44,569 bases of DNA, taken from the sequence record MT331608. The stretch is one strand, 5' to 3'. The first letter of the stretch is position 1, and each line of letters begins with the position of its first letter. Below are positions 1 to 44,569 of this stretch, in pieces. A model generated the notes under the pieces. It saw nothing but the letters and a program-made list of their open reading frames with translations, was not told the DNA's origin and ran no database searches. This stretch comes from Escherichia phage SECphi4. Made by a program: the position numbers and the translations under genes.

Positions 1-65
1 CCCGTCCTCGCCAGTGAGCACGACCATAGGCTGGACGTCCTGATCTGCGATGCCAAAATTAGCGG
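1..65. repeat. Terminal direct duplication, identical to 44505..44569 (circular permutation or assembly overlap)
   Basis: First 65 nt of the window recur exactly as the last 65 nt. Confidence 0.95.
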
Positions 66-438
66 CTTTGATCGTTTTACCGGGGGTAAGTGCGCCGCCT
101 GTTTTGACGGGCCAGCCTAAAAGGCTGTCGTATTGCGCTGCCGTTGTATCGATCTGAGTCTCGTCATGCACGGTCATGTAAGACTCGCCCAGCAGGGCGG
201 CATACGCCACCAGATCCACGATGTTATCTTCCTGGTGCTTACGGTGCTGGCGCACCAGCTTCAGGCAGATCAGGAAGGTCCAGGCTTCTTGCTCGGTAAG
301 GTCGCGCCCGGTAAGCGCGTTAAACACGGCAGCGATTTGTTTAGCGCTGCGTTCTTCTTTCGCGTTGTCATAGCCGTTTTCTTTCCCGCGCTGTTCCATA
401 GTGGTGGCGGCGTTTTTGCAGTATTCGTATGCTTTCAT
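1..438 (-). CDS. Hypothetical protein, 5' part (146 codons) of an ORF that continues across the window junction
   Basis: ATG at 436..438 with AAGGAA SD upstream; open to position 1 in a frame that continues exactly at 44504. Confidence 0.6.
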   Translation of the reverse strand, partial: MKAYEYCKNAATTMEQRGKENGYDNAKEERSAKQIAAVFNALTGRDLTEQEAWTFLICLKLVRQHRKHQEDNIVDLVAYAALLGESYMTVHDETQIDTTAAQYDSLLGWPVKTGGALTPGKTIKAANFGIADQDVQPMVVLTGEDG

Positions 439-479
439 GATGTGTTCCTTTCTAGAGGCCATATTGCCCCGACGCGTTA

Positions 480-509
480 ACTATAGTGCAACCAACCTAT
501 TGGTTGCAA
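480..509 (-). promoter_or_regulatory. Sigma70-like promoter (TTGCAA-N18-TATAGT) overlapping an inverted repeat TGCAACCAA/TTGGTTGCA
   Basis: -35 and -10 hexamers about 45 nt upstream of the ATG at 438; architecture recurs at 2384, 15227 and 25833. Confidence 0.45.
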
Positions 510-966
510 GTGAATTTTGCAACGTTTATTGCGTAAATTTTCGGAACCAGATCGCTGCACGCCCGACGAATTGCCGCGATGTTCTTCTCGCAATCTTCAA
601 TGATGACCAGTTCCGACACGTCCGCATAGCAGACCATTTTGAATACAGCGCACGCCTTAAACTCCGGCGGCGGGGTGTCGTCCAGCATGTGGCGCATAAA
701 CAACCGGCCTGTCGGGAATACTTCCAGTTGCTCGGCGGTAGTCTCCCAACATTCGCGCTGCAGGTTTGTCAGATACGCGATCTCGAAGCCTTGCTCTTTA
801 TACATGCTCAACAGCGGCAGCATATCCATGTTAAGGTCTTCGCGTACGTGCGATTTGTGCCACTTCGCCCAAAATGTTGATTTGGTTTTTATGCCGGGGA
901 CCAGTCGGCGCGCGCATCACTTGAACCATTAATAACACCATCCAGATCACAAATCAGTAGTTTCAT
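497..966 (-). pseudogene. HAD-superfamily 5'-nucleotidase-like gene split by a -1 frameshift (or sequencing indel)
   Basis: ATG at 964..966 encodes MKLLICDLDGVI (HAD motif I DxDG) and stops after 25 codons; the -1 frame is open from 916 to 497 and contains an LDD motif; frames overlap at a C4 run and GC repeat (892..916). Confidence 0.35.
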
Positions 967-1184
967 TTTAATTCCGCCATTAAATTTTCACGTACAATAC
1001 GGGACGAGAATGCGTCGCACACAAGATGGCAATGCGCCGTCATGACAAGCCAGCCAGTTAGGTCAAGGCCTAGCAATTGATGCGGTTGGCTTGCGCGCCT
1101 TACTTTATTTCCAGGGAAAACCTGGTAGCGTTTAATTATTTCATCCACGACGCGCGGACTGCGATCGACGACTAAGATATTCAT
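963..1184 (-). CDS. Hypothetical protein (73 aa)
   Basis: ATG at 1182..1184 preceded by GAAGGAG SD; overlaps the 3' end of the Dam-like gene. Confidence 0.45.
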   Translation of the reverse strand: MNILVVDRSPRVVDEIIKRYQVFPGNKVRRASQPHQLLGLDLTGWLVMTAHCHLVCDAFSSRIVRENLMAELK

Positions 1185-1650
1185 ATAATTCTCCTTCACT
1201 CATTATCTCGATTTGTGCGCTGCCGTTTGGCGGCACTTCTTCAAAGATTATCAATTGCTGACACTTGTTGTTACTCGGCCCGACCTTACCGGTGACGGCG
1301 TGTATAAACCGGATCCGCCAGTCCAGCAAAATGATCAGGTTGGCGGTTTGCCTTGCCAGTTTGGCCCACTTCGTGGTCGTATCTTGGTTGAGCAACATTA
1401 CCGTCTTACGCCCCTGCGATGCGCAAGTCACCCACGGCAGCGGGTCGGAATACGGCGGATTGCACCACTTCCACCCGTTTAACTCTGACCAGTCAGCATC
1501 AAGCGCGCTGTGCTCTTTCGTGAAATAGCGCGGTAGCAAATGGTTGTGGTCGCTCGCCGCCATGTCGTAGCGGAATTTAAACGCCTTGCGCAGCGGTTTA
1601 AATAAAGCTGGCGGCGTGCGCCAGCTATCTTTTTGCTCACTCTTCTGCAT
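1141..1650 (-). CDS. DNA N6-adenine methyltransferase (phage Dam family)
   Basis: WRTPPALF N-terminal motif and catalytic NPPY tetrapeptide in a 169-aa ORF. Confidence 0.85.
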   Translation of the reverse strand: MQKSEQKDSWRTPPALFKPLRKAFKFRYDMAASDHNHLLPRYFTKEHSALDADWSELNGWKWCNPPYSDPLPWVTCASQGRKTVMLLNQDTTTKWAKLARQTANLIILLDWRIRFIHAVTGKVGPSNNKCQQLIIFEEVPPNGSAQIEIMSEGELYEYLSRRSQSARRG

Positions 1651-2095
1651 GGTCGGTATCTATCGCATACAGGGCAATTTTCTTACCACTGTTTAGAACG
1701 CGTTGCAGGCGCTTTGCCCCCTCGACGCTAAGCGGTCGGCAATCGGAGTAGTAGCTGCCGTTTGCGCGCCACGCCATAAGCACCAGGTCTTTTCTGTCGA
1801 TCTTAGACTGGCGACCTTTGGGGCGCACGTACTCCTCGGCCCGTTTGCAATGCTCGCGCAGACCTTCGGCAGTGATGCGGTTTAGTGCAACGCTGGTTGT
1901 GTATCCGGTGCGCTGCATAATCCCCATCAATTTGAAAAGCAGTTCGAAACGCTCCTCTAGCTCCTTGCGGACCTTCTCTTCACCTTCATAGCTTGCAAGA
2001 TAGGTGTTAGCCAGCGCGGTAGCGCCTTCTGCTTTCTCGCGTGCTTCAAGACACTGCGCTACCCAGTACGCTTTTTCTTCTTGTAAAATTTTCAT
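1637..2095 (-). CDS. Hypothetical protein with C-terminal resolvase-like HTH
   Basis: 152-aa ORF with strong AAGGAG SD; C-terminal segment resembles Hin/resolvase HTH_7 pattern. Confidence 0.45.
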   Translation of the reverse strand: MKILQEEKAYWVAQCLEAREKAEGATALANTYLASYEGEEKVRKELEERFELLFKLMGIMQRTGYTTSVALNRITAEGLREHCKRAEEYVRPKGRQSKIDRKDLVLMAWRANGSYYSDCRPLSVEGAKRLQRVLNSGKKIALYAIDTDHAEE

Positions 2096-8322: not shown

Positions 8323-9048
8323 TTAACGGCGGCGACGTTTACGAGGCTTTTCATCTTCGTCATCGTCTTCGTCATCGTCGCGGCGCTTGGATTTTTTGGA
8401 CTTGCGCGGTTTGTCGTCTTCGTCATCGTCATCACGACGTTTTGACTTCTTAGACTTGCGCGGTGCTTCGTCTTCGTCATCGTCGCCCAGGTCTTCGTCG
8501 GAACATGAAGACCCGCCACCTCCGAAGGCTTCGCCGTCTTCACGGAATCGCAGACCCAGCAAGCCAGCCCCGAGACCCTTGCCGTTGGTATTGTTCCATG
8601 CCCAAATATCAAGGGACACGTTGCAATAACAACCGGAGTAGATCTCCTGGCCTTCAATCTCGTCGCCGTCGATGGTCAGACCTTGTTCAGTCTGCTTCTC
8701 GCCGAGTGACGTTTGAATGATTGGCTGTTTGAACGATTTGGCGTTGATGTACAACATGCCTTCGAATTCTTCGGTTACTTCGTCGCGCTCGTCACCGTCG
8801 CGCACTGCGCATTCCTTAGAATCCTGGGCGTAGTGGCGGTCCATCCACTTATCGGCATTCTTCTCGGATTTCAGCTTGTCGGTGAGCACTGCGCGCGCTG
8901 CCGCTTCCACTTTGTCCACCTGCGGATCTTCTTTATCAAGAAGAATCACGGCGCGGTATGCCGGTTTTTGTCCATCCTGTTTCGGGGTATCACGTTCCCA
9001 GATTTTCAGGAAGCATACGCGCACTTTTTTCAGGTTGACTTTAGCCAT
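8323..9048 (-). CDS. Single-stranded DNA-binding protein (DUF2815 / T7 gp2.5-like) with mixed-charge repeat tail
   Basis: MAKVNLKKVRV N-terminus and glycine-rich core typical of DUF2815; C-terminal tandem PRKSKKSKRRDDD(D)EDD repeats. Confidence 0.7.
   Translation of the reverse strand: MAKVNLKKVRVCFLKIWERDTPKQDGQKPAYRAVILLDKEDPQVDKVEAAARAVLTDKLKSEKNADKWMDRHYAQDSKECAVRDGDERDEVTEEFEGMLYINAKSFKQPIIQTSLGEKQTEQGLTIDGDEIEGQEIYSGCYCNVSLDIWAWNNTNGKGLGAGLLGLRFREDGEAFGGGGSSCSDEDLGDDDEDEAPRKSKKSKRRDDDDEDDKPRKSKKSKRRDDDEDDDEDEKPRKRRRR
8326..8490. repeat. Imperfect tandem DNA repeat (about 57-bp unit) encoding the SSB C-terminal repeats
   Basis: Repeated ...gacttgcgcgg...cgtcttcgtcatcgtc... units visible in the sequence. 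Confidence 0.7.
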
Positions 9049-9138
9049 TTTCCAATTCCTCATTTTCACATTTATCGGGGTTATTGGAAGCCACCCCGTT
9101 CGGCTTGGTTGCTAATTTACTTGGTTGCGCCGGAGCGG

Positions 9139-11279: not shown

Positions 11280-11798
11280 TTAGTCTTCCAGTTCGAAATA
11301 GGTTTCGACGATTTCTTTTAACTCTGTGTGGAAGTCTTCGACGTCGTCGTCTTCCAGCTTGGCGATTGATTTGATCTCGAACGATTCCAGCAGGTCGTCG
11401 AATTCGTCGTTCGCGTCGTCGTCGTCACCACCAGCGATAATAGCGGCGTACTGTTTGATCTCGTCGCGCATCTCTGCCAGCGGGTCGGCATCTTTCTTGC
11501 CTTTGCCTTTCGCCGGAGCTTTTTTGGTTTTCGCCGGTTTTTCGTCTTCGGCTTCTTCATCGTCGTCATCTTCTACGACTTCTTTTTTGGCCTTACCTTT
11601 AGCCGGTGCTTTTTTGGTTTTCGCCGGTGCTTCGTCTTCGGTTTCATCGTCGTCATCTTCTACGACTTCTTTCTTAGCCTTAGACGGCTTCTTGTCTTCC
11701 TGCTTACCCACGGCAGCGCCAACGGTTTCATAATGCTTAGCGATGGTTTCCAGTGCTACTACGCCGCGAGTAATCAGGTTTACGATTTGTTCAAACAT
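11280..11798 (-). CDS. Mixed-charge tandem-repeat protein; first gene of the minus-strand arm
   Basis: ATG at 11796..11798 with GGAGA SD; 173 aa with two roughly 30-aa repeats KKEVVEDDDDE..PAKTKKAPAKGK and an acidic C-terminus. Confidence 0.6.
   Translation of the reverse strand: MFEQIVNLITRGVVALETIAKHYETVGAAVGKQEDKKPSKAKKEVVEDDDDETEDEAPAKTKKAPAKGKAKKEVVEDDDDEEAEDEKPAKTKKAPAKGKGKKDADPLAEMRDEIKQYAAIIAGGDDDDANDEFDDLLESFEIKSIAKLEDDDVEDFHTELKEIVETYFELED
11490..11690. repeat. Tandem 90-bp DNA repeat (2 copies) inside the acidic protein gene
   Basis: Near-identical gccgg(a/t)gcttttttggttttcgccgg...catcgtcgtcatcttctacgacttc units at about 11512 and 11602. Confidence 0.8.
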
Positions 11799-12138
11799 GG
11801 TATATCTCCGATTGGTTAAGTTTAGGTGTCGGCAGTTAACTTCGTCGGTGGCCTTAACATATTGCCAGGTTACGCGTTCTCCCGTTCGGGTAGTGGACCT
11901 GGTTATATAATCACGGTTGGGAATCCTGACACTTCGATCCGGCCCCTGCGTTGCCCCTCTCCAGTTTGCGTCCTGCATCCTGTCGACGAGGTGAATATTA
12001 GATTGGTTGCATGAGGGAGTCAACAACTAATTTAAAAAAAAGCGCCGAAGCAAAATGCGACGGCGCTAACCAATAAGAGACAATGAGACGGGAATTATTA
12101 TTACACGCGTGCGCGCCCGTTTCAATATTCCAGAGGAG

Positions 12139-14803: not shown

Positions 14804-14884
14804 ATTCTGCGCGCATTGGTTGCCGTTTTGAGTGTTTTTATCCGGTCGTATTGGTTGCCGTGTAGTGTAAATATAATGAATAGT

Positions 14885-15071
14885 TATGCAATAAAACTGC
14901 ATAAAGTAAGCGGGACAAAAAGCGGGACAAACAAGAGGCGGGACAAAGCGGGACAGCACCCCCGTCCCGCCCCGGATGACGCGGCCTGGATAGGAGCGGG
15001 ACAGGCGGGACAAACCCCAGTCTTTCAGACTAGACGGGGGTCAATGGCCCCCCTCGTCTGAGACTGAATAA
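14885..15071. repeat. Iteron element copy A: six or more GCGGGACA direct repeats plus a conserved imperfect palindrome
   Basis: Near-identical to 31562..31740, including a 55-bp identical block cccagtctttcagactagacgggggtcaatggcccccctcgtctgagactgaataa. Confidence 0.85.
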
Positions 15072-15226
15072 AATCCGGGGATTGCAAAATACACGGCAGC
15101 ATAATGCGAAGTGCGGTCGCGGATGAACTAGGCAACCAATGCGATTTGCATTATGCGAAGTGAAAAATGCAGTTTGCAGTTGCAGCAGATAGCGATCAAC
15201 TTTTTCATGCGCGTGATTAATATTGG

Positions 15227-15255
15227 TTGCATTCAACCCGGCGCCTTGCTATATT
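15227..15255 (+). promoter_or_regulatory. Sigma70-like promoter (TTGCAT-N17-TATATT) with ATTGGTTGCA copies at 15222 and 15253
   Basis: Same architecture as the minus-strand promoters; 21-bp block tatattggttgcacaccaaca is shared with the promoter at 25833. Confidence 0.5.
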
Positions 15256-15282
15256 GGTTGCACACCAACATGAGGGCGGAAC

Positions 15283-19950: not shown

Positions 19951-20034
19951 GTGCCTGTTATAATCCCCCTTAGATGGCAGGGCCGTCTCCTATGTTGCCG
20001 ATGGTCGGCGCATATGCACAAAAGGGCTTATATC

Positions 20035-20586
20035 ATGGCAGAAATTAAAGTTAAGGGCCGTCGCGCCAAACTGGACGGACGAGTAGCAGTTACCCCTCGC
20101 CGTAAACCAGGCGAGCAAACCGAACATACCAATCTCGGACCTGAGATCGAGTACGGCAAGCGCCGTAAAGGCGGCAAATGTGGGCGCCCTACTGACTACC
20201 GATCTGTTTACTGCGACCAGCTTCGTCGCTATTTTGCCGACGCCGACGCCTGGCAGGTCAATTACTCCGATAAAGGCGCTGCGCAGGTAATCCCTCGCAA
20301 CAAAATGCCAACCTTCGGCAGATTTGCCGCGGAAATCGGTGTGGGCGTCGCTTGCCTGTATCGCTGGGCGCGCGCACATGAGGAGTTCGCCGAGGCGATG
20401 GCGGACGCTATGGAATTGCAGAAAACTTTCCTGATGGAGGCTGGCGGCGTAACCATCGCGGCGGGCTTCGCTACGTTCCTGCTTAAAGCCAACCACGGCG
20501 TACGCGACGATATCCCACTGGATGACGACGAAGATGATAACGGCGACGTCGTTGTCGAACCTACCGGCAAAGGCCAGGGCGAATAA
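20035..20586 (+). CDS. Terminase small subunit
   Basis: 183 aa immediately upstream of TerL; HTH-like segment and acidic C-terminus; start set at the internal ATG (MAEIKVKG). Confidence 0.7.
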   Translation: MAEIKVKGRRAKLDGRVAVTPRRKPGEQTEHTNLGPEIEYGKRRKGGKCGRPTDYRSVYCDQLRRYFADADAWQVNYSDKGAAQVIPRNKMPTFGRFAAEIGVGVACLYRWARAHEEFAEAMADAMELQKTFLMEAGGVTIAAGFATFLLKANHGVRDDIPLDDDEDDNGDVVVEPTGKGQGE

Positions 20587-21971
20587 TGCGTAACTATGCG
20601 GCAGAACACCGCGCACTGGAACGCGCGATCGCAAAGCGCAACCGACCGCCACGCCCAACACGCGTTGCGCAGGCCGTCCGCCTTTACCAGCCTGATTGCT
20701 TGCCGCACCAGGTTGAACTACTGCGCGACACAAAGACTAAAATCCTCGGCCTGTGTTCCGGCTTCGGCGGCGGCAAGTCATGGGTTGCGGCGAGAAAGGT
20801 CATACAGCTTTTAACCCTGAACCCTGGTTATGACGGCATCGTGACCGAACCGACTATTCCACTCCTGGTTAAAATAATGTATCCGGAACTGGAGAAGGCA
20901 TTCGACGAGGCTGGATTCAGGTGGAAGTTCAATAAGCAGGACAAGATCTACAACGTGCTGGTGAAAGGCAAATGGACCCGCGTTATATGTGAATCAATGG
21001 AGAATTATACCCGCCTGATCGGGGTAAACGCCGCGTGGATTGTTGCCGATGAATTCGACACCACTAAGCAAGACGTCGCGCTGGCGGCATATCACAAATT
21101 GCTCGGTCGTCTGCGTGCGGGCTTTGTCCGCCAGTTCGTCATCGTGTCCACCCCGGAAGGCTACCGGGCGATGTACCAGATTTTCGAAGTGGAGAAGGAT
21201 AGCCAGAAACGTTTGATCCGGGCGAAGACTACCGATAACCACCACCTACCGGCAGACTTCATCGACACGCTGCGCCGCCAGTACCCGGCGAACCTGATTG
21301 ACGCGTACTTGAACGGCCTGTTTGTAAACCTTACGTCTGGCGCGGTTTACAAGATGTTCAATCGTGAGGAGAACGCCAGCACCGAAGAAGTGCAGCCGGA
21401 AGACACGCTGATTATCGGTATGGACTTTAACGTCACGAAGATGGCGGCGGTCGTGTACGTCAGACGGCAGCGCATCGCCGAAAACAAGGAGTTCCGCGAC
21501 GAGATCCACGCAGTGGATGAGTTTGTGGACCTGTTTGATACCCCGGCTATGATTGAGGCGATCGAGGAGCGATACCCAGATCATTGCGCTGCCGGTCGTG
21601 TTGTCGTGTACCCGGATAGCAGCGGCAAGTCTCGCAAGACTGTCAACGCATCATCGTCCGATATAGCGCAACTGGAAGACGCGGGCTTCGAGGTGGAGTA
21701 TGACAGTGTTAACCCACCTGTGAAAGACCGATTGATCGCGATGAATACGATGATGTGCAACTCGAAGGGCGTGCGCCAGTATTTTGTCAACCTGGATAAA
21801 TGCCCTACACTAGCGAAATGTCTGGAACAGCAGGTTTACGACCTGAAGAAAGGCGAGCCGGATAAAACCGCCGGGGCGGACCACATGAACGATGCCGCGG
21901 GCTATCCAATTGCGCACCTGTTCCCAGTGATTCGCCCAATCGCCGTTGTTCCAACTGTAGACTTCTACTAA
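20586..21971 (+). CDS. Terminase large subunit
   Basis: 461 aa with Walker A-like GFGGGKS; position upstream of the portal gene. Confidence 0.85.
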   Translation: MRNYAAEHRALERAIAKRNRPPRPTRVAQAVRLYQPDCLPHQVELLRDTKTKILGLCSGFGGGKSWVAARKVIQLLTLNPGYDGIVTEPTIPLLVKIMYPELEKAFDEAGFRWKFNKQDKIYNVLVKGKWTRVICESMENYTRLIGVNAAWIVADEFDTTKQDVALAAYHKLLGRLRAGFVRQFVIVSTPEGYRAMYQIFEVEKDSQKRLIRAKTTDNHHLPADFIDTLRRQYPANLIDAYLNGLFVNLTSGAVYKMFNREENASTEEVQPEDTLIIGMDFNVTKMAAVVYVRRQRIAENKEFRDEIHAVDEFVDLFDTPAMIEAIEERYPDHCAAGRVVVYPDSSGKSRKTVNASSSDIAQLEDAGFEVEYDSVNPPVKDRLIAMNTMMCNSKGVRQYFVNLDKCPTLAKCLEQQVYDLKKGEPDKTAGADHMNDAAGYPIAHLFPVIRPIAVVPTVDFY

Positions 21972-21981
21972 GGAAACGACC

Positions 21982-23502
21982 ATGACCGTTAACGTTGATA
22001 ACCAGCACCCACTTTATGCGCGCATCGCGCCAGAGTGGAAGATGATCCGCGATTGTGTAGCAGGGGAGCGCGCCGTGAAGGCGTGCGGCCCCTTGTACCT
22101 GCCTCATCCCGCCAGTGGCGACAATACTGACCCGAAAGCACGGGCGCGGTATAAGGCGTACAAGCAACGCGCTGTATTCCTGAACGCCACAGCCCGCACA
22201 CTTAACGCGCTGTTAGGCGTTGCCTTTGCGAAACCGGTAAGTCTGGACCTTTCCGGGGCAATGGCTGACCTGATTGACGACGTAGACGGCAGCGGTATGC
22301 CACTGCCGCAACTTCTGCGCGGTGCTATGTCGGAAGTGCTGCAATCAGGCCGCGCTGGCTTTATGGTGGACTACGACCGCCAGGCCCACTTTGACGAACT
22401 GGGTAACGTAGTGCCGCAGACAGCCGCTGAAATGGCGGCACACCGCCCGCTTATCCGCCTGTATACGGCAGAACAGATCATCAACTGGCGGCAGACCCAC
22501 GGCGTCGATACGCTAATTGTGCTGAAGGAAACGGACGAAATCAGCACCGAAGACCCGGACGACTTCGCAAACCACGAAGTAACAATCTGGACCGAGCTTC
22601 GCATGATTAATGGTGCGGCACATGCCCGCCGCTGGTTTTATAACGCTGACACGTCCGAGGTGAAAATGGACTTGCCGCGTGGATTTACCCGCACCGACCT
22701 TGTGCCGCTGGTGGATGCTGCCGGTAAAGCGCTGACACAGCTTCCGTTTTGCTGGTGTGGCGCGGTGGACAACAACGCGACACCGGACGCCGCACCGCTG
22801 GCGGATATTGCGTCCATCAACATTAAGCACTACAACGCCGAAGCTGACGTCGCCGAGATTGCGCACATCGTGGGCCAACCTACACTCATTGCGACTGGTC
22901 TGACCCAATCATGGGCGGACAAGAACCTGAAAGGAGGCATCGCGCTCGGGGCAACTAAGGGCGTTATCCTGGGCCAGAACATGGACGCCAAACTGCTTCA
23001 GGCGGAGGAGCGCAACTTGTCTGTTGCACTGTGTGAGCGCCGCGAATTGCAAATGGCTAAACTGGGCGCGGCCCTGGTTGAGAAGGGGACCGCACCTAAG
23101 ACGGCAACCGAGGCGGCCTATGATGCACAGACTGATAACAGTATCCTGTCACTGATTGCCGGTAACGTCGAGAAGGCTTTCAACCGTGCGCTGCAAATCG
23201 TCAAGCTGTTCACGGGCGACACCGCAGATCAACGCGTAACGCTGAATAAGTTCTACACCGAAATCACGGTTGACGCACAGCTTATGACCGCAATGATGGC
23301 GGGTGTGCAGACCGGTACGGTCCGTCTGGCGGACTTTATCAAGTGGATGATGGCCCAGGGCGTTATTGATGACTCGCAAACCGTCGAGCAGGTGGAAGAC
23401 GAACTGCGAAATCAGAATCCATTGCCTCAAATGTCCCCGGATGCGGTAGAATCGACCGAAGAAGCCCCGGACGAGGTAGCGGACAATGGCGAAGACAATT
23501 AA
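21982..23502 (+). CDS. Portal protein
   Basis: 506 aa directly after TerL with acidic C-terminus; assignment by synteny and size. Confidence 0.75.
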   Translation: MTVNVDNQHPLYARIAPEWKMIRDCVAGERAVKACGPLYLPHPASGDNTDPKARARYKAYKQRAVFLNATARTLNALLGVAFAKPVSLDLSGAMADLIDDVDGSGMPLPQLLRGAMSEVLQSGRAGFMVDYDRQAHFDELGNVVPQTAAEMAAHRPLIRLYTAEQIINWRQTHGVDTLIVLKETDEISTEDPDDFANHEVTIWTELRMINGAAHARRWFYNADTSEVKMDLPRGFTRTDLVPLVDAAGKALTQLPFCWCGAVDNNATPDAAPLADIASINIKHYNAEADVAEIAHIVGQPTLIATGLTQSWADKNLKGGIALGATKGVILGQNMDAKLLQAEERNLSVALCERRELQMAKLGAALVEKGTAPKTATEAAYDAQTDNSILSLIAGNVEKAFNRALQIVKLFTGDTADQRVTLNKFYTEITVDAQLMTAMMAGVQTGTVRLADFIKWMMAQGVIDDSQTVEQVEDELRNQNPLPQMSPDAVESTEEAPDEVADNGEDN

Positions 23503-24589
23503 TCAATATATGGCGGATCGAATGATTCGCCGTCACATCTTCACCCAGCGCCTGAGTAATGACCAGGCGCGGAGGGTGTTGGCTATGTGGGAGAAGTTCC
23601 GGCCCACGTTACTGGGTAAGCTGACCGAGTTGCTTGATGGTAAAAAGTCCATGAGCAACAAGGCGCTTACCACCCTGTTAACGCAACTCGACAAGACCGT
23701 CAAAACGGAACTGCGCACCGAGTTTAAGGTGCTGGCTGAAAGCCTTCAGGAGTTCGCCGACACCGAGGCCGATTATCTCGCCGACACATTAACGGCAGCG
23801 ATCCAGCCGGTGGTCGCCGTACCTACGGTCGAGGTGGTTGGCGTAGTGACCGGCGCGCAGATCGCAGCAACGGCAATGAAAAACCCGTTCCAGGGCAATA
23901 CCATGATGCAATGGCCCGACTCACTTTCTGAGTGGACCAGGACGCAGATCGGCAATCAGGTGCGCGCCGGATTCATCCAGGGCAAGCCAACGATGGAAAT
24001 TATCGCGGACGTGAGGCGCGCGCTAGGCGGTCGTAGTGCGCAAGCCATCTCAAGCGTTGTTAAGTCTGCAGTCAACCACTATGCGGCGACCGCCCGCGAA
24101 CTAATGGTAAAAGCAAATGACGATATTCTCGAAGGTCGCCAATGGTTATCTACATTGGACACGCATACTTCTCCCATGTGCCAGCTACGCGATCGCCTGT
24201 TTTATCCGGTTGATGTTACTCCCGACACCAAAGGAAAGCGCGGCGGGAAAGTGGTGGCTGGGTCACAATATGGCGCTGGACCGGGCAAGTTGCATTATTG
24301 CTGCCGGTCGACGGAGACGTGGAAAGTCAAGGGCATGGAAGATTGGCCCAGTGGTAAGCGTCCGGCACTGAAGGCTGACGCGGGTAGATTGCTGAGTGAG
24401 CAGGTAGACGCGCAGACTGATTTCTTCTCATGGGTGCAGCGCCAGCCGCGCCATATCCTGGAAGAATTATACGGAGTGCAACGCGCCGACCAGATTATGC
24501 GCGGCGTGAAAGTGCCGAAGATGTTCACCGATTCAGGTGAACTGATGACTATCGCACAGCTTAAAAACCGGGGGTTATGGCGTGATTAA
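23486..24589 (+). CDS. Head morphogenesis protein (Mu F / SPP1 gp7-like)
   Basis: 367 aa with WLSTLDTHTSPMC signature; follows the portal gene. Confidence 0.75.
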   Translation: MAKTINQYMADRMIRRHIFTQRLSNDQARRVLAMWEKFRPTLLGKLTELLDGKKSMSNKALTTLLTQLDKTVKTELRTEFKVLAESLQEFADTEADYLADTLTAAIQPVVAVPTVEVVGVVTGAQIAATAMKNPFQGNTMMQWPDSLSEWTRTQIGNQVRAGFIQGKPTMEIIADVRRALGGRSAQAISSVVKSAVNHYAATARELMVKANDDILEGRQWLSTLDTHTSPMCQLRDRLFYPVDVTPDTKGKRGGKVVAGSQYGAGPGKLHYCCRSTETWKVKGMEDWPSGKRPALKADAGRLLSEQVDAQTDFFSWVQRQPRHILEELYGVQRADQIMRGVKVPKMFTDSGELMTIAQLKNRGLWRD

Positions 24590-24911
24590 ATATGCAGCGA
24601 TTGGACTGGTTATCGGTCTGGCGGTAGGATTCTGGCTAGGTGACTCCTATCGCGCTGGCGTAGTGGCGGAGGCGGCGCAAGAAGCGCAAGCCAAAGCCCA
24701 ACGGCAGCAAACTAAAGTTGTGGAGCGCTCCGTGCAGGCCGAACAGGCCCGCGACGTGGAATACCGGACTATCACGAAAGAGGTTGTTAAATATGTTACG
24801 CGCCCTAACCGCCCTGATTGTAGTTTTGATGCTGAGCGCGTGCGGATCAAGCAACGCGCCGTTGATGCCGCTAACGGAGTCGGCACTGCGACCGCCGTGC
24901 AAGTTCGATAG
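24582..24911 (+). CDS. i-spanin (Rz-like)
   Basis: GTG start; N-terminal TM helix then charged coiled-coil region; contains an embedded lipoprotein ORF in another frame. Confidence 0.7.
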   Translation: MIKYAAIGLVIGLAVGFWLGDSYRAGVVAEAAQEAQAKAQRQQTKVVERSVQAEQARDVEYRTITKEVVKYVTRPNRPDCSFDAERVRIKQRAVDAANGVGTATAVQVR

Positions 24912-25023
24912 CCCGTCCGCGGACCCCGACGAGGATTTGATGATTGATGTGAAAAATATGGAATGCGGGGCGAAGCTAAGGGCGCAGGTGCTGGAGTTGC
25001 AGCAAATAATTAAGGGGCCGTAA
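24793..25023 (+). CDS. o-spanin (Rz1-like outer-membrane lipoprotein)
   Basis: Signal peptide with lipobox LSAC; proline-rich mature part; embedded in the +1 frame of the i-spanin gene; AAGAGG SD. Confidence 0.7.
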   Translation: MLRALTALIVVLMLSACGSSNAPLMPLTESALRPPCKFDSPSADPDEDLMIDVKNMECGAKLRAQVLELQQIIKGP

Positions 25024-25036
25024 TGGCCCCCTTTTC
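25014..25036. terminator. Bidirectional rho-independent terminator between convergent genes
   Basis: Stem GGGGCC/GGCCCC with 5-nt loop, flanked by an A/T-rich run upstream and TTTT downstream. Confidence 0.6.
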
Positions 25037-25037
25037 G

Positions 25038-25802
25038 TTAGCGCGGAATACCGCAAATCTCGTTGAGAGTTTTCACATCCAGCGCCACCGCCGTGGATTT
25101 TGGCTTGTCCGGGTAAGGGATGAATTGCTCAACTTCAGGCCATGCCTTAATCAGCTTCTTATCGGTATTGTGCATATCCAGCACACCGGTAACGGTCAAC
25201 TTGAATGCGTCATACTTCGCACGCAATTCGCGGCGGGCCTGGTCGTTACGGTCAAGGCGCTTACAGAAGTCATGATCCGCCGGGAAATCAGCACGGCAGC
25301 GTGGCTTATAGATCGGAAGCGATTTTCCGTCCTCGTCCACTTCACACACCGAAGCCAACATAACTTCCTCGAACCCCGGTACGATATCGCCGAGATCGGG
25401 AGATAGCTTATTCATGTATTTATACTCCCAGTATCCGCGATGTACTCGGTATTGGTGCCCATCGCCGCTCAATGACAAGGTGCGAACGTTACCGCCTGCG
25501 TTGATTTCGAAAGTGGCGTCGTAAACGCTGCCAATACCTTTGGGGCGGTCGGTGTTATAACTATACGTCGCCTTGTTGGTGTATACGCAGACGCCGTACA
25601 TCTGCGACGGGTCATCGTTGATTGCTTCGATGTGTGCGAATAGTTCGGCGAACGTATGAATGCCCCCCGGCATACAGTGCAACGTAATGTCATACGCCAG
25701 GTCGCGCGAGTCCGTCATGATTGATTTGGCTTCGGTAGCGATTTCGTGGTCGCGCAGAATGTTAGCCAGAATCTGGTTTTTAATGTCTTTGGTCAGTCTC
25801 AT
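25038..25802 (-). CDS. Opposite-strand hypothetical protein (254 aa) inserted in the head module
   Basis: ATG at 25800..25802 with GAGGA SD; own promoter upstream and terminator downstream; no recognisable motif. Confidence 0.6.
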   Translation of the reverse strand: MRLTKDIKNQILANILRDHEIATEAKSIMTDSRDLAYDITLHCMPGGIHTFAELFAHIEAINDDPSQMYGVCVYTNKATYSYNTDRPKGIGSVYDATFEINAGGNVRTLSLSGDGHQYRVHRGYWEYKYMNKLSPDLGDIVPGFEEVMLASVCEVDEDGKSLPIYKPRCRADFPADHDFCKRLDRNDQARRELRAKYDAFKLTVTGVLDMHNTDKKLIKAWPEVEQFIPYPDKPKSTAVALDVKTLNEICGIPR

Positions 25803-25832
25803 TTTTGTGTCCTCGTTGTTGGTGTGCAACCA

Positions 25833-41916: not shown

Positions 41917-41945
41917 AGTATCGCACTGCTTAACCATTAATGCAA
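41917..41945 (-). promoter_or_regulatory. Candidate promoter (TTGCAT-N17-GATACT) with an ATTGGTTGCA copy
   Basis: Motif at 41941..41950 on the complementary strand, upstream of the lipoprotein gene. Confidence 0.35.
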
Positions 41946-41966
41946 CCAATTTATGAGGATTTAGCA

Positions 41967-43784
41967 ATGGCGGCGGGAACATTATCCGTAACGAATAACA
42001 GCAAGACAGTTGTAGGGGTTGGCACGACGTTCACCGCGTTTAAAGCTGGCGACTTCTTAACTCTGGTGGTGGGGCAAGTGCCTTACACTGTTGCGATCGC
42101 GTCCGTAGAAAGCGACACCGCGCTTACGCTGGTGCTGCCGTTCGACGGCCCAACGGCAGCAGGCCTTGCGTGGGATGGCGTTAAGCGCGATACCATGTCG
42201 CTGGCAACGATGGGCGTAACAGTACAGGCACAGAAAGCGTTGCGCTTGATGCTCGCGGACGAAAACAACTGGCGTGCGATATTCGGAGACGAAGAAGAAA
42301 TCACGGTAACGCTGCCGAACGGGCAAGTAATGCAGGGTATGTCGTGGGGCTATCTGTCGCAATTGATGAAGGAAATAGACCCCGTTGAGATGCGCAACCT
42401 GCAACAAAAAACCCGCGAGTCTGAGTTAGCCACGTGGCATTATCGGCAGGAGGTCGAAGGCTTTAAGAACGACACCAATTCCATCAAGGACCAGACAAAC
42501 CAGATTAAGGAGGATACGCAGGCTATCCACGACGCCACCAATGCCATCAAGGACCAGACAAACCAGATTAAGGCTGACACCGGCGTTATTCGCGACGAGG
42601 CCAATGCCGCGAATGCTGAAGCGCAAGCCGCCAGCACTGCCGCGCAGGGATTTCGCGATCAGGCCGAAGAATTGGTGCAAAGCATAAACCCCGACAATCT
42701 GCTAACCAAATCCGGCAACCTGGCGGGCCTGGCTGACCGCGCCGCTTCATGGCTTAATATTCGCCCGATTGGACCTACTCCGCTCGCTGGCGATCCTGTT
42801 GACGATTATGACGCCACCACGAAGCGTTGGGTGCAGAATACGCTAAACTCTGGCGTAATCGGACAAAGCTGGGGTGTTAAGAACGTAAATGTTAGCACCC
42901 CAGAGCCAGGCGTTAACGTCAGTGGCGGAATGTTGGTGTCTGAATACTCCAACCCGGAACGCAGTCTTTTTGCTCGCCTATACTCGAACACTGTATGGGG
43001 TTATCCTGGAGCGGCTATTATTGAGGCGGAAGGTAGTAACAAGCACACATACCAGTTTTTTGAAGACGGCACTGTTGATTTCAGGAAATCCGGTAATTCA
43101 AACCGAGTCAGCATGCACACATCCACCTCAAGTTGGTATAACGTCACAACGGCGTCACGCACCGACTTGACATCAGGTGGGGTTGACAGAATTCTGGAAG
43201 CAGAGGCGTCGGATATTTTAGTACTGGGGTACACTATTGGTGCGTCACGTCCTGACGGCTACCCAACAAAAGTAGGCTTTCATCAATATATTTGGCCTAC
43301 GGAATCATACAACTTCGCTTCAGCGGTAATCTCAATTGGTGCGGACAATGGTTGGTGTAAATTCCTTTTTGGTGTGGACGGGGTGATCTGGGGGTCTACA
43401 GATCAAGGTGATTTTTCCTACACCCGTAACGGTGTGTCCGACTCGCGTGTTAAGCACGGCATAGAGCCAACAACCGTTGATAAGGCGTGGAGTAACTTGA
43501 CATCCCTACAGTTTGTAACGTTTGTTTATAATAACGATGAGCAGGAGCGCCAGCGACGTGGCATTATCGCGCAGCAAGCAGAGACTGTAGATAAGCTATA
43601 TGTAAAAACAAGGGTTTATCCTGGTAAAAATACAGGGGACTCTATGGTTGAACAGAAGGAACTGGATACTATGCCATTGCTTCTTGACACCATGCATGTT
43701 GTGCAAACGCTGATGCTGAAGATCGAGGCGATGGAAGCAGAGATTGCCACCCTTAGAGAAGAAGTGGCGGAGTTGAAGAAATAA
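41967..43784 (+). CDS. Side tail fibre with coiled-coil repeats and probable C-terminal intramolecular chaperone domain
   Basis: 605 aa; tandem 21-aa repeats (T-N-x-I-K-D-Q-T-N-Q-I-K); C-terminal SDSRVK...GIIAQ motifs resemble the S74-type chaperone domain. Confidence 0.7.
   Translation: MAAGTLSVTNNSKTVVGVGTTFTAFKAGDFLTLVVGQVPYTVAIASVESDTALTLVLPFDGPTAAGLAWDGVKRDTMSLATMGVTVQAQKALRLMLADENNWRAIFGDEEEITVTLPNGQVMQGMSWGYLSQLMKEIDPVEMRNLQQKTRESELATWHYRQEVEGFKNDTNSIKDQTNQIKEDTQAIHDATNAIKDQTNQIKADTGVIRDEANAANAEAQAASTAAQGFRDQAEELVQSINPDNLLTKSGNLAGLADRAASWLNIRPIGPTPLAGDPVDDYDATTKRWVQNTLNSGVIGQSWGVKNVNVSTPEPGVNVSGGMLVSEYSNPERSLFARLYSNTVWGYPGAAIIEAEGSNKHTYQFFEDGTVDFRKSGNSNRVSMHTSTSSWYNVTTASRTDLTSGGVDRILEAEASDILVLGYTIGASRPDGYPTKVGFHQYIWPTESYNFASAVISIGADNGWCKFLFGVDGVIWGSTDQGDFSYTRNGVSDSRVKHGIEPTTVDKAWSNLTSLQFVTFVYNNDEQERQRRGIIAQQAETVDKLYVKTRVYPGKNTGDSMVEQKELDTMPLLLDTMHVVQTLMLKIEAMEAEIATLREEVAELKK
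42471..42590. repeat. Tandem 63-bp repeat inside the fibre gene
   Basis: Repeated aat(t/g)ccatcaaggaccagacaaaccagattaagg at about 42477 and 42540. Confidence 0.8.
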
Positions 43785-43787
43785 ACT

Positions 43788-43816
43788 AAAAAGGGGCCAT
43801 GCGGCCCTTTTTTTTT
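43788..43816. terminator. Bidirectional rho-independent terminator where the two arms converge
   Basis: Stem GGGCC/GGCCC with ATGC loop flanked by A5 and T9. Confidence 0.7.
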
Positions 43817-44390
43817 AGTTTGAGTTTTCCCAATCCATTTTGCGCCTCACCAGCGGGCTTTCGAAGTATTCCTTACCTTCCACTTCCACTAAAGGCCAAT
43901 CGTTCACGATCACGTATGGCTCTGCTATATCCTCAATCACACCGTGCGCGCTATGCTGCCCAAACGACACACCAACCAGAATAACACCGGCAACTCGACG
44001 GGAAAGATACTCGCGAGCGCAACGGGCCTCAACCAGCCCGCGACGGATGCCGCTGGTAGCTTTGACCTCATAGGTCCAGACGGCATCAATCATGTGTTCC
44101 CGGAAGTCTGGGCCGGATTTAACCTTGCGCTTACCGACCATGATAATATCGCCGCGGTCGATAGTGTTAGCGCTAAACAGGCCGGTACGCATTAGCAAAC
44201 CTTGCGGAATACAGCTACGCCCGCCCGCCTGCCCTTCGAGGTACATGCCCGCAAACATCTCACCCAGCACACCGACCAGACGGCTTTGCTTGCAAGCGTC
44301 GGACTTGTATCGCCACTGGTCAAACTCGATGCTCGCGATCATCGCCGCCAGGTGGAATTGTTTACCAGATATTTCATATTCGCCGTACAT
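43815..44390 (-). CDS. Hypothetical protein with PD-(D/E)XK-like motif
   Basis: 191 aa; GPDF...IDAVWTYEVK resembles a restriction-endonuclease-fold core; last gene of the minus-strand arm. Confidence 0.5.
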   Translation of the reverse strand: MYGEYEISGKQFHLAAMIASIEFDQWRYKSDACKQSRLVGVLGEMFAGMYLEGQAGGRSCIPQGLLMRTGLFSANTIDRGDIIMVGKRKVKSGPDFREHMIDAVWTYEVKATSGIRRGLVEARCAREYLSRRVAGVILVGVSFGQHSAHGVIEDIAEPYVIVNDWPLVEVEGKEYFESPLVRRKMDWENSN

Positions 44391-44432
44391 TGTGTGGCCC
44401 CTATTGATGCGGGCCGAAGCCCGCGATTAGAA

Positions 44433-44569
44433 TTATTTAAGTGCGCCAGTCACCAGTGTTTTTTCCATGTTACGGAAATCTTCCTGCGTCATGAGGATTT
44501 TAGACCCGTCCTCGCCAGTGAGCACGACCATAGGCTGGACGTCCTGATCTGCGATGCCAAAATTAGCGG
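44433..44569 (-). CDS. 3' part of the junction-spanning ORF (about 169 aa in total); unknown function
   Basis: Frame continuous with 1..438 through the duplicated 65 bp; stop TAA at 44433..44435. Confidence 0.6.
   Translation of the reverse strand, partial: ANFGIADQDVQPMVVLTGEDGSKILMTQEDFRNMEKTLVTGALK
44505..44569. repeat. Second copy of the 65-bp terminal duplication
   Basis: Exact match to 1..65. Confidence 0.95.

Follow-up and report, generated by a model that had tools for sequence, protein, structure and literature searches.

The window, meaning the whole stretch of 44,569 nucleotides recorded for Escherichia phage SECphi4 (MT331608), begins and ends with the same 65 bases. Direct comparison of prefix with suffix shows that bases 1-65 equal 44505-44569 exactly and that this is the sole prefix/suffix identity (k=65) in the 44,569 bases. 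An exact match of this length would arise by chance, by my own arithmetic, with a probability near 4^-65 = 7e-40 per position pair. A repeat census of the window likewise returned the terminal 65-mer (family D5, 100% identity) as the longest exact repeat, the runner-up being the 34-nt core of an unrelated dispersed element. Removal of one copy leaves a unique genome length of 44,504 bp, and the point at which base 44504 meets base 1 is called the join below.

A minus-strand frame reads straight through the join. It opens with an ATG at 438, reaches base 1 after 146 whole codons, resumes at 44504..44436 and stops at a TAA (44435..44433), yielding a protein of 169 aa (Table 1). The N-terminal part of this protein carries a DUF6378 domain (PF19905, E=8e-10), and the protein matches phrog_9871 over its full length (E=2e-105); its last ~60 C-terminal residues are without a family match, and comparison with PDB sequences produced only a chance-level match. 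Residues 1-169 align end to end with Over9000 gp30, EE09_6 and bov25_1D gp27 at 87-90% identity, and the residues on either side of the join, PMVVLTGEDG and SKILMT, are identical in all three orthologues. The sequence-only reading of this stretch had reported both the end identity and an ORF continuing across the join, and it was correct on each count: the match is exact, the frame encodes 169 aa and the orthologues align from end to end. The labels attached to this protein family disagree, related PHROGs being tagged as a putative "phosphofructokinase" whereas the SECphi18 orthologue is described as a putative "nucleotide modification associated protein".

The surroundings of this gene resemble a transcription unit. 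The promoter-like site ahead of it overlaps a palindromic pair of an over-represented word, TGCAACCAA, at 487-508, and would act as the promoter of the junction gene. The 191-aa gene that follows has no Pfam match, and the hairpin beyond it lies where the unit converges with the tail-fibre gene at 41940-43784. The join would thus fall within a single two-gene minus-strand unit extending from the promoter-like site to the terminator.

Table 1. Features at the join and elsewhere in the window, with positions in window coordinates.
Feature	Position	Strand	Remarks
First 65-mer copy	1..65		Genuine single-copy genome sequence; junction-gene codons 125-146
Second 65-mer copy	44505..44569		Most likely redundant, a representation artefact; relatives carry a single copy
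Junction gene, 5' part (codons 1-146)	1..438	-	DUF6378-domain protein, 169 aa in full
Junction gene, 3' part (codons 147-169 and TAA stop)	44433..44504	-	
Promoter-like site TTGCAA-18-TATAGT (sigma-70-like)	480..509 (509->480)	-	Directly upstream of junction gene; consensus match
191-aa gene downstream of junction gene	43815..44390 (44390->43815)	-	Orthologue of Over9000 gp29
Strong bidirectional intrinsic-terminator-like hairpin closing the two-gene unit	43788..43813		Consensus match
Small terminase subunit, TerS	20014..20586	+	190 aa when started at the ATG that relatives use
Large terminase subunit, TerL	20586..21971	+	Terminase_6N and Terminase_6C
Portal protein	21982..23502	+	DUF4055
Head and tail genes, tail fibres	after portal, up to 43784		
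Leftward replication/DNA-metabolism gene block	~12 kb down to join	leftward	

Two further observations concern the sequence upstream of the junction gene. The 9-mer TGCAACCAA occurs 12 times in the window against 0.39 expected, a count reached in 0/100 shuffles, and its copies are mostly intergenic and often paired. They lie at 487-508, 2391-2416, 12003, 15223-15262, 15982, 18590, 25825-25847 and 41941, with the palindrome at 487-508 and tandem pairs at 2391/2408, 15223/15254 and 25825/25839. The word overlaps the -35-like TTGCAA at 509-504 and probably serves the phage as a promoter or operator element. The neighbouring HAD-phosphatase or polynucleotide-kinase-phosphatase-like gene (966->497, minus strand), an orthologue of the 156-aa Over9000 gp31, has a 1-bp deletion at 904/905. 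The window reads GCCGA-CTG there and three relatives read GCCGAYCTG; the missing base is not part of a homopolymer, and its loss puts the gene out of frame beyond about residue 21. It may reflect a real pseudogene or a change of start, or else an error in the consensus.

Judged by its sequence, the window is the complete 44,504-bp genome of a virulent siphophage that infects E. coli and belongs to the genus Dhillonvirus (SO-1/HK578-like). A megablast search with window positions 1-25000 returned 182 phage records, the best of which align over 95-97% of the query with 91-92% identity; nearly all are Escherichia phages of Dhillonvirus, among them AV129, Over9000, TheodorHerzl, mckay and SSL-2009a. 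By ICTV convention the genus threshold is 70% nucleotide identity, and the values found here lie well above it and are accompanied by colinearity of the whole genome. The unique length agrees with the range of 43-46 kb given for Dhillonvirus genomes (PMC8594841), and the gene order is that of Over9000, with the characteristic succession of terS, terL, portal, head, tail and fibre genes and then the leftward replication genes. Scans of the whole window found no tRNA and no Rfam family at gathering thresholds. Identity to the relatives below about 95% suggests a distinct species-level lineage. Two records in the same identity range (~90-92% to the window) carry unexpected hosts: OQ221563.1 (Acinetobacter phage NJ01) is attributed to Acinetobacter baumannii and MG065648.1 (Campylobacter phage A144) to Campylobacter jejuni. 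These are likely cases of host misattribution or of contaminating coliphages.

The window also holds repeats away from its ends. A dispersed direct repeat of ~195 bp lies at 14877-15071 and 31545-31739, with an inverted partial copy at 31502-31535; both full copies are intergenic, one after the primase/helicase gene and the other before the tape-measure gene. Each element contains six iteron-like GCGGGACA words, of which the window has 14 in total against 1.9 expected, 12 of the 14 being in or beside the two elements. After the iterons comes a block of ~60 nt whose sequence is the same in both copies and does not differ between the window phage and Over9000. On folding, the block forms a long hairpin with an energy of -28.4 kcal/mol (z = -4.5). 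Because this block is more conserved than the surrounding genome it is clearly constrained; possible roles for it are those of an origin, a regulator array or a structured RNA. In-frame tandem repeats of 54 and 90 nt (families D1, D3 and D8) occur at 8344-8496 and 11486-11665, inside the minus-strand ORFs 8323-9069 and 11280-12026. They are rich in GTC/TTC/ATC triplets, which on the minus strand encode mainly Asp/Glu, and alternate with stretches rich in Lys/Ala/Pro, which suggests that the two ORFs encode low-complexity charged repeat proteins in the replication module. Finally, the lateral tail-fibre gene at 41940-43784 contains a 63-nt (21-codon) tandem duplication with 81% identity at 42469-42594, in the region most divergent from the relatives.

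Whether the join is a natural adjacency can be read from related genomes. A synthetic junction query of 1,663 bp was made of the tail of the unique sequence followed by its head; it aligned as a single interior piece, at 23983-25568 of SSL-2009a and 23513-25132 of SO-1 among others, in 141 of 155 phage records. Three complete relatives of 44.2-44.7 kb (Over9000, EE09 and bov25_1D) were then aligned to the window over their whole genomes, and each proved to be a colinear circular permutation of it. In Over9000, positions 24115-24891 correspond to window 43724-44504 and positions 24892-27006 to window 1-2095, so that the Over9000 boundary 24891/24892 aligns to window 44504/1 with zero bases missing. 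The same holds outside the phage records: two IMG/VR contigs and one SPAdes metagenome contig (the latter found by a 30-mer match), ~84-93% identical to the window, span the join in one block and have their own ends elsewhere. An exact 85-mer made of the left flank, the 65-mer and the right flank had no match in metagenome contigs, and neither IMG/VR nor the metagenome collection yielded the window itself. Among the fetched relatives and environmental contigs, no record or contig ends at the window join. The records of Over9000 and TheodorHerzl begin at window 19959; an apparent start of both at window base 1 was rejected as an artefact of joining alignment pieces across a circular permutation.

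These alignments bear out the sequence-only reading that the window stands for a genome with about 44,504 unique bp that is either circularised or circularly permuted, for the relatives are colinear and permuted and nothing is missing at the join. They agree equally with its view that the circle was opened arbitrarily, within a gene, the join falling at codon 146/147 of a conserved DUF6378 gene and other records having been opened elsewhere. Contiguity across the join does not in itself tell packaging modes apart, since genomes with direct terminal repeats (DTR) or cos ends also assemble as circles. The packaging argument therefore rests on the terminase and on the literature, contiguity being shared by all three modes.

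The terminase genes place the phage close to relatives for which read-based calls exist. TerL matches only Terminase_6N and Terminase_6C, plus a DEAD match below the cut-off, with no lambda-GpA-type match listed, and TerS shows weak matches to GP3_package and Sf6_terminase (P22 gp3 and Sf6 TerS) that fall below the Pfam curated cut-offs. TerL had no match at E<=0.01 among PDB sequences. The two proteins are nearly the same as those of phage Opt212 (98.9% identity for TerL; 187/190 residues, or 98%, between TerS and Opt212 gp02), and the sequence preceding terS hardly differs from that of Opt212 either. All assemblies of Opt212 and its four sister phages circularised, suggesting terminally redundant chromosomes, and PhageTerm predicted headful packaging from the Opt212 reads, for which reason the records were opened at terS (PMC9022532). 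Other reports on the genus point mostly the same way: four of five bovine Dhillonviruses were described as "circular permutated" (PMC8407724), UDS3lw as headful with a preferred pac site (PMC13348001) and BF9 as headful and permuted (PMC10059673). None of the papers on Opt212, UDS3lw and BF9 gives a position for pac. Beyond the genus, the closest TerLs (~40% identity) belong to Jersey/K1G-like siphophages, and Sciku, a phage of that subfamily, was called headful (PMC6753286). The terminase of the window phage is thus related, through Opt212, to those of phages called headful, with calls that are computational rather than biochemical. By analogy with these relatives, headful packaging is strongly favoured for the window phage and cos packaging disfavoured. 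The earlier suggestion that the true packaging ends lie elsewhere gains indirect support from the same analogy, near-identical terminases going together with read-based headful or permuted calls. Its wider statement that TerS and TerL are compatible with headful or cos packaging can be narrowed: the headful half is backed by the terminase type and the relatives' calls, and the cos half is not, its one claim in the genus mapping to window ~2388 with a 10-mer that the window lacks.

Formally, a genome with a short DTR looks just like this, with the same bases directly repeated at either end, and one Dhillonvirus, bov25_1D, had its termini scored as "fixed" by PhageTerm (PMC8407724). The 65 bases might then be a genuine terminal repeat, with fixed T7-style ends at the window ends and duplication of the repeat during concatemer processing. 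A repeat of this kind is looked for outside transcription units or at their boundary; the 65-mer is wholly coding and lies inside a putative one. Ends at this place would cut a conserved gene and separate a promoter-like site from its terminator, so that the infecting DNA would carry the gene in two parts, and this speaks against a real terminal repeat. The GenBank record of bov25_1D, moreover, opens before terS, at window 19959, and not at the join; no other fetched record ends at the join either, the terminase is nearly that of headful-called Opt212, and 65 bp is shorter than well-characterised exact DTRs. I consider a true terminal repeat very unlikely. Repeats can also bound gaps: repeat-bounded contigs are a common assembly outcome, and the window holds other, real dispersed repeats, so the two 65-bp copies could both be real and enclose further sequence that was never assembled. 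Against this, 44,504 bp falls within the 43.6-45.5 kb of complete relatives, all segments of Over9000 are accounted for in order with the join contiguous to the base, the gene across the join is seamless and full length, and relatives have one copy of the 65-mer region. The Over9000 alignment and the full-length junction gene have effectively refuted an incomplete contig already, and its probability is negligible.

Another possibility is that the overlap is artefactual and that packaging nevertheless starts from a cos site whose cohesive ends are fixed somewhere else in the genome, for example near window 2388. For EE09, which shares the terminase genes of the window and matches it at ~91% identity, PhageTerm returned a 5' cos call with ATCTTAAGGG (PMC10673088). 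The ends of the EE09 record map to window 2388/2389 and not to the window ends. This is a conserved intergenic spot between ORF 2095-2337 and an HNH endonuclease gene (2418-2741), directly after a terminator-like hairpin and before a doubled ATGCAACCAAT word. The EE09 10-mer, however, is absent from the window, where its sole one-mismatch match, at 35048, is not above chance, and the spot homologous to the EE09 end reads ACCCTCAATAT in the window versus ACCCTTAAGAT in EE09. Neither a lambda GpA-type or HK97-type cos terminase nor a conserved cos sequence was found, and several independent read-based analyses of relatives gave headful or permuted. Since the site lies ~17.6 kb from the terminase genes and next to the HNH gene, the EE09 call could reflect a hot-spot for nicking or cleavage, or an artefact of the library or of PhageTerm, instead of cos. 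Cos packaging from such a place seems improbable, and neither the EE09 nor the bov25_1D report supports ends at the window join. Taken together, the conflicting calls in the genus (headful, "fixed" and 5' cos), despite near-identical terminases, could mean that packaging is not plain headful, either through a site-specific end or nick at ~2388 or with the 65-mer as an ultra-short DTR inside a gene. I hold this to be unlikely to about the same degree as cos, and of its two versions the in-gene DTR is much less likely. Were either true, the window ends or the EE09-type site would carry biology and not book-keeping.

Thus, the reading I prefer, at a probability of roughly 0.93, is that the 65-base duplication is an assembly or linearisation overlap of a complete, terminally redundant and most likely headful-packaged Dhillonvirus genome. 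The identity is confined to the contig ends, and removing one copy restores the contiguity seen in independent genomes; a join inside a conserved gene and a single putative transcription unit is not where physical DNA ends are expected. In such a phage packaging by TerS and TerL would begin on the replication concatemer in the style of P22 and Sf6, and the pac site for this presumably lies within terS or close to it. Headful measurement would then set the cuts, and the ends would be spread around the map instead of being fixed. Because the virion DNAs would be terminally redundant and circularly permuted, the reads would assemble into a closed circle, which would then have been cut arbitrarily, within the DUF6378 gene, to give a linear record. 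The overlap of 65 bases would have been produced by an assembler and left on, and the copy at 44505-44569 would not be a separate biological element. A k of 65 is not known as a default of common assemblers; naming the assembler from k=65 was rejected as unsupported.

For the record itself the consequences are practical. The window can be certified as a complete genome, and trimming 65 bases avoids counting them twice. Joining the split gene rescues an ORF that linear gene callers would miss or truncate at both ends, and the sequence can be given a new origin upstream of terS (~19959), as in curated relatives. Headful packaging and circularising assemblies have already been reported for Dhillonvirus, so that there is nothing new here for packaging biology. 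A discrepancy of a similar kind exists for bov25_1D, announced at 44,747 nt (PMC8407724) and deposited as MT884015.2 at 44,670 nt, exactly 77 fewer. The difference resembles a terminal overlap left by SPAdes at k=77 and removed at a later date, an artefact akin to that in the window.

Four known systems offer comparisons. The T7 direct terminal repeat is 160 bp long; a T7-type genome with a short DTR resembles the window in that its linear form begins and ends with exactly the same bases, but the repeat in the window is coding, sits within a gene and a putative operon, measures 65 bp and accompanies a terminase like that of headful-called relatives. The pac headful type of P22 and Sf6 is nearer, with a TerL of Terminase_6N/6C type and weak TerS similarity in common and with relatives that are permuted or headful; P22 differs in that the nearest TerLs outside the genus are Jersey/K1G-like (~40%) and not those of P22, and the TerS matches are sub-threshold. 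Other Dhillonvirus genomes (Opt212, Over9000, AV129) are alike in gene order and agree at ~91-92% identity over 95-97% of the first 25 kb, whereas the tail-fibre region is divergent and the window has the 1-bp frameshift in its HAD-phosphatase-like gene; curated records of the genus open at terS, and the window record opens inside a gene with its overlap retained. Finally, the terminal k-mer overlap of circular contigs is the signature that viral-genome completeness tools score as "DTR = complete genome". Like the window, such contigs show an identity of tens of bases at their ends only and, once trimmed, close into a seamless circle.
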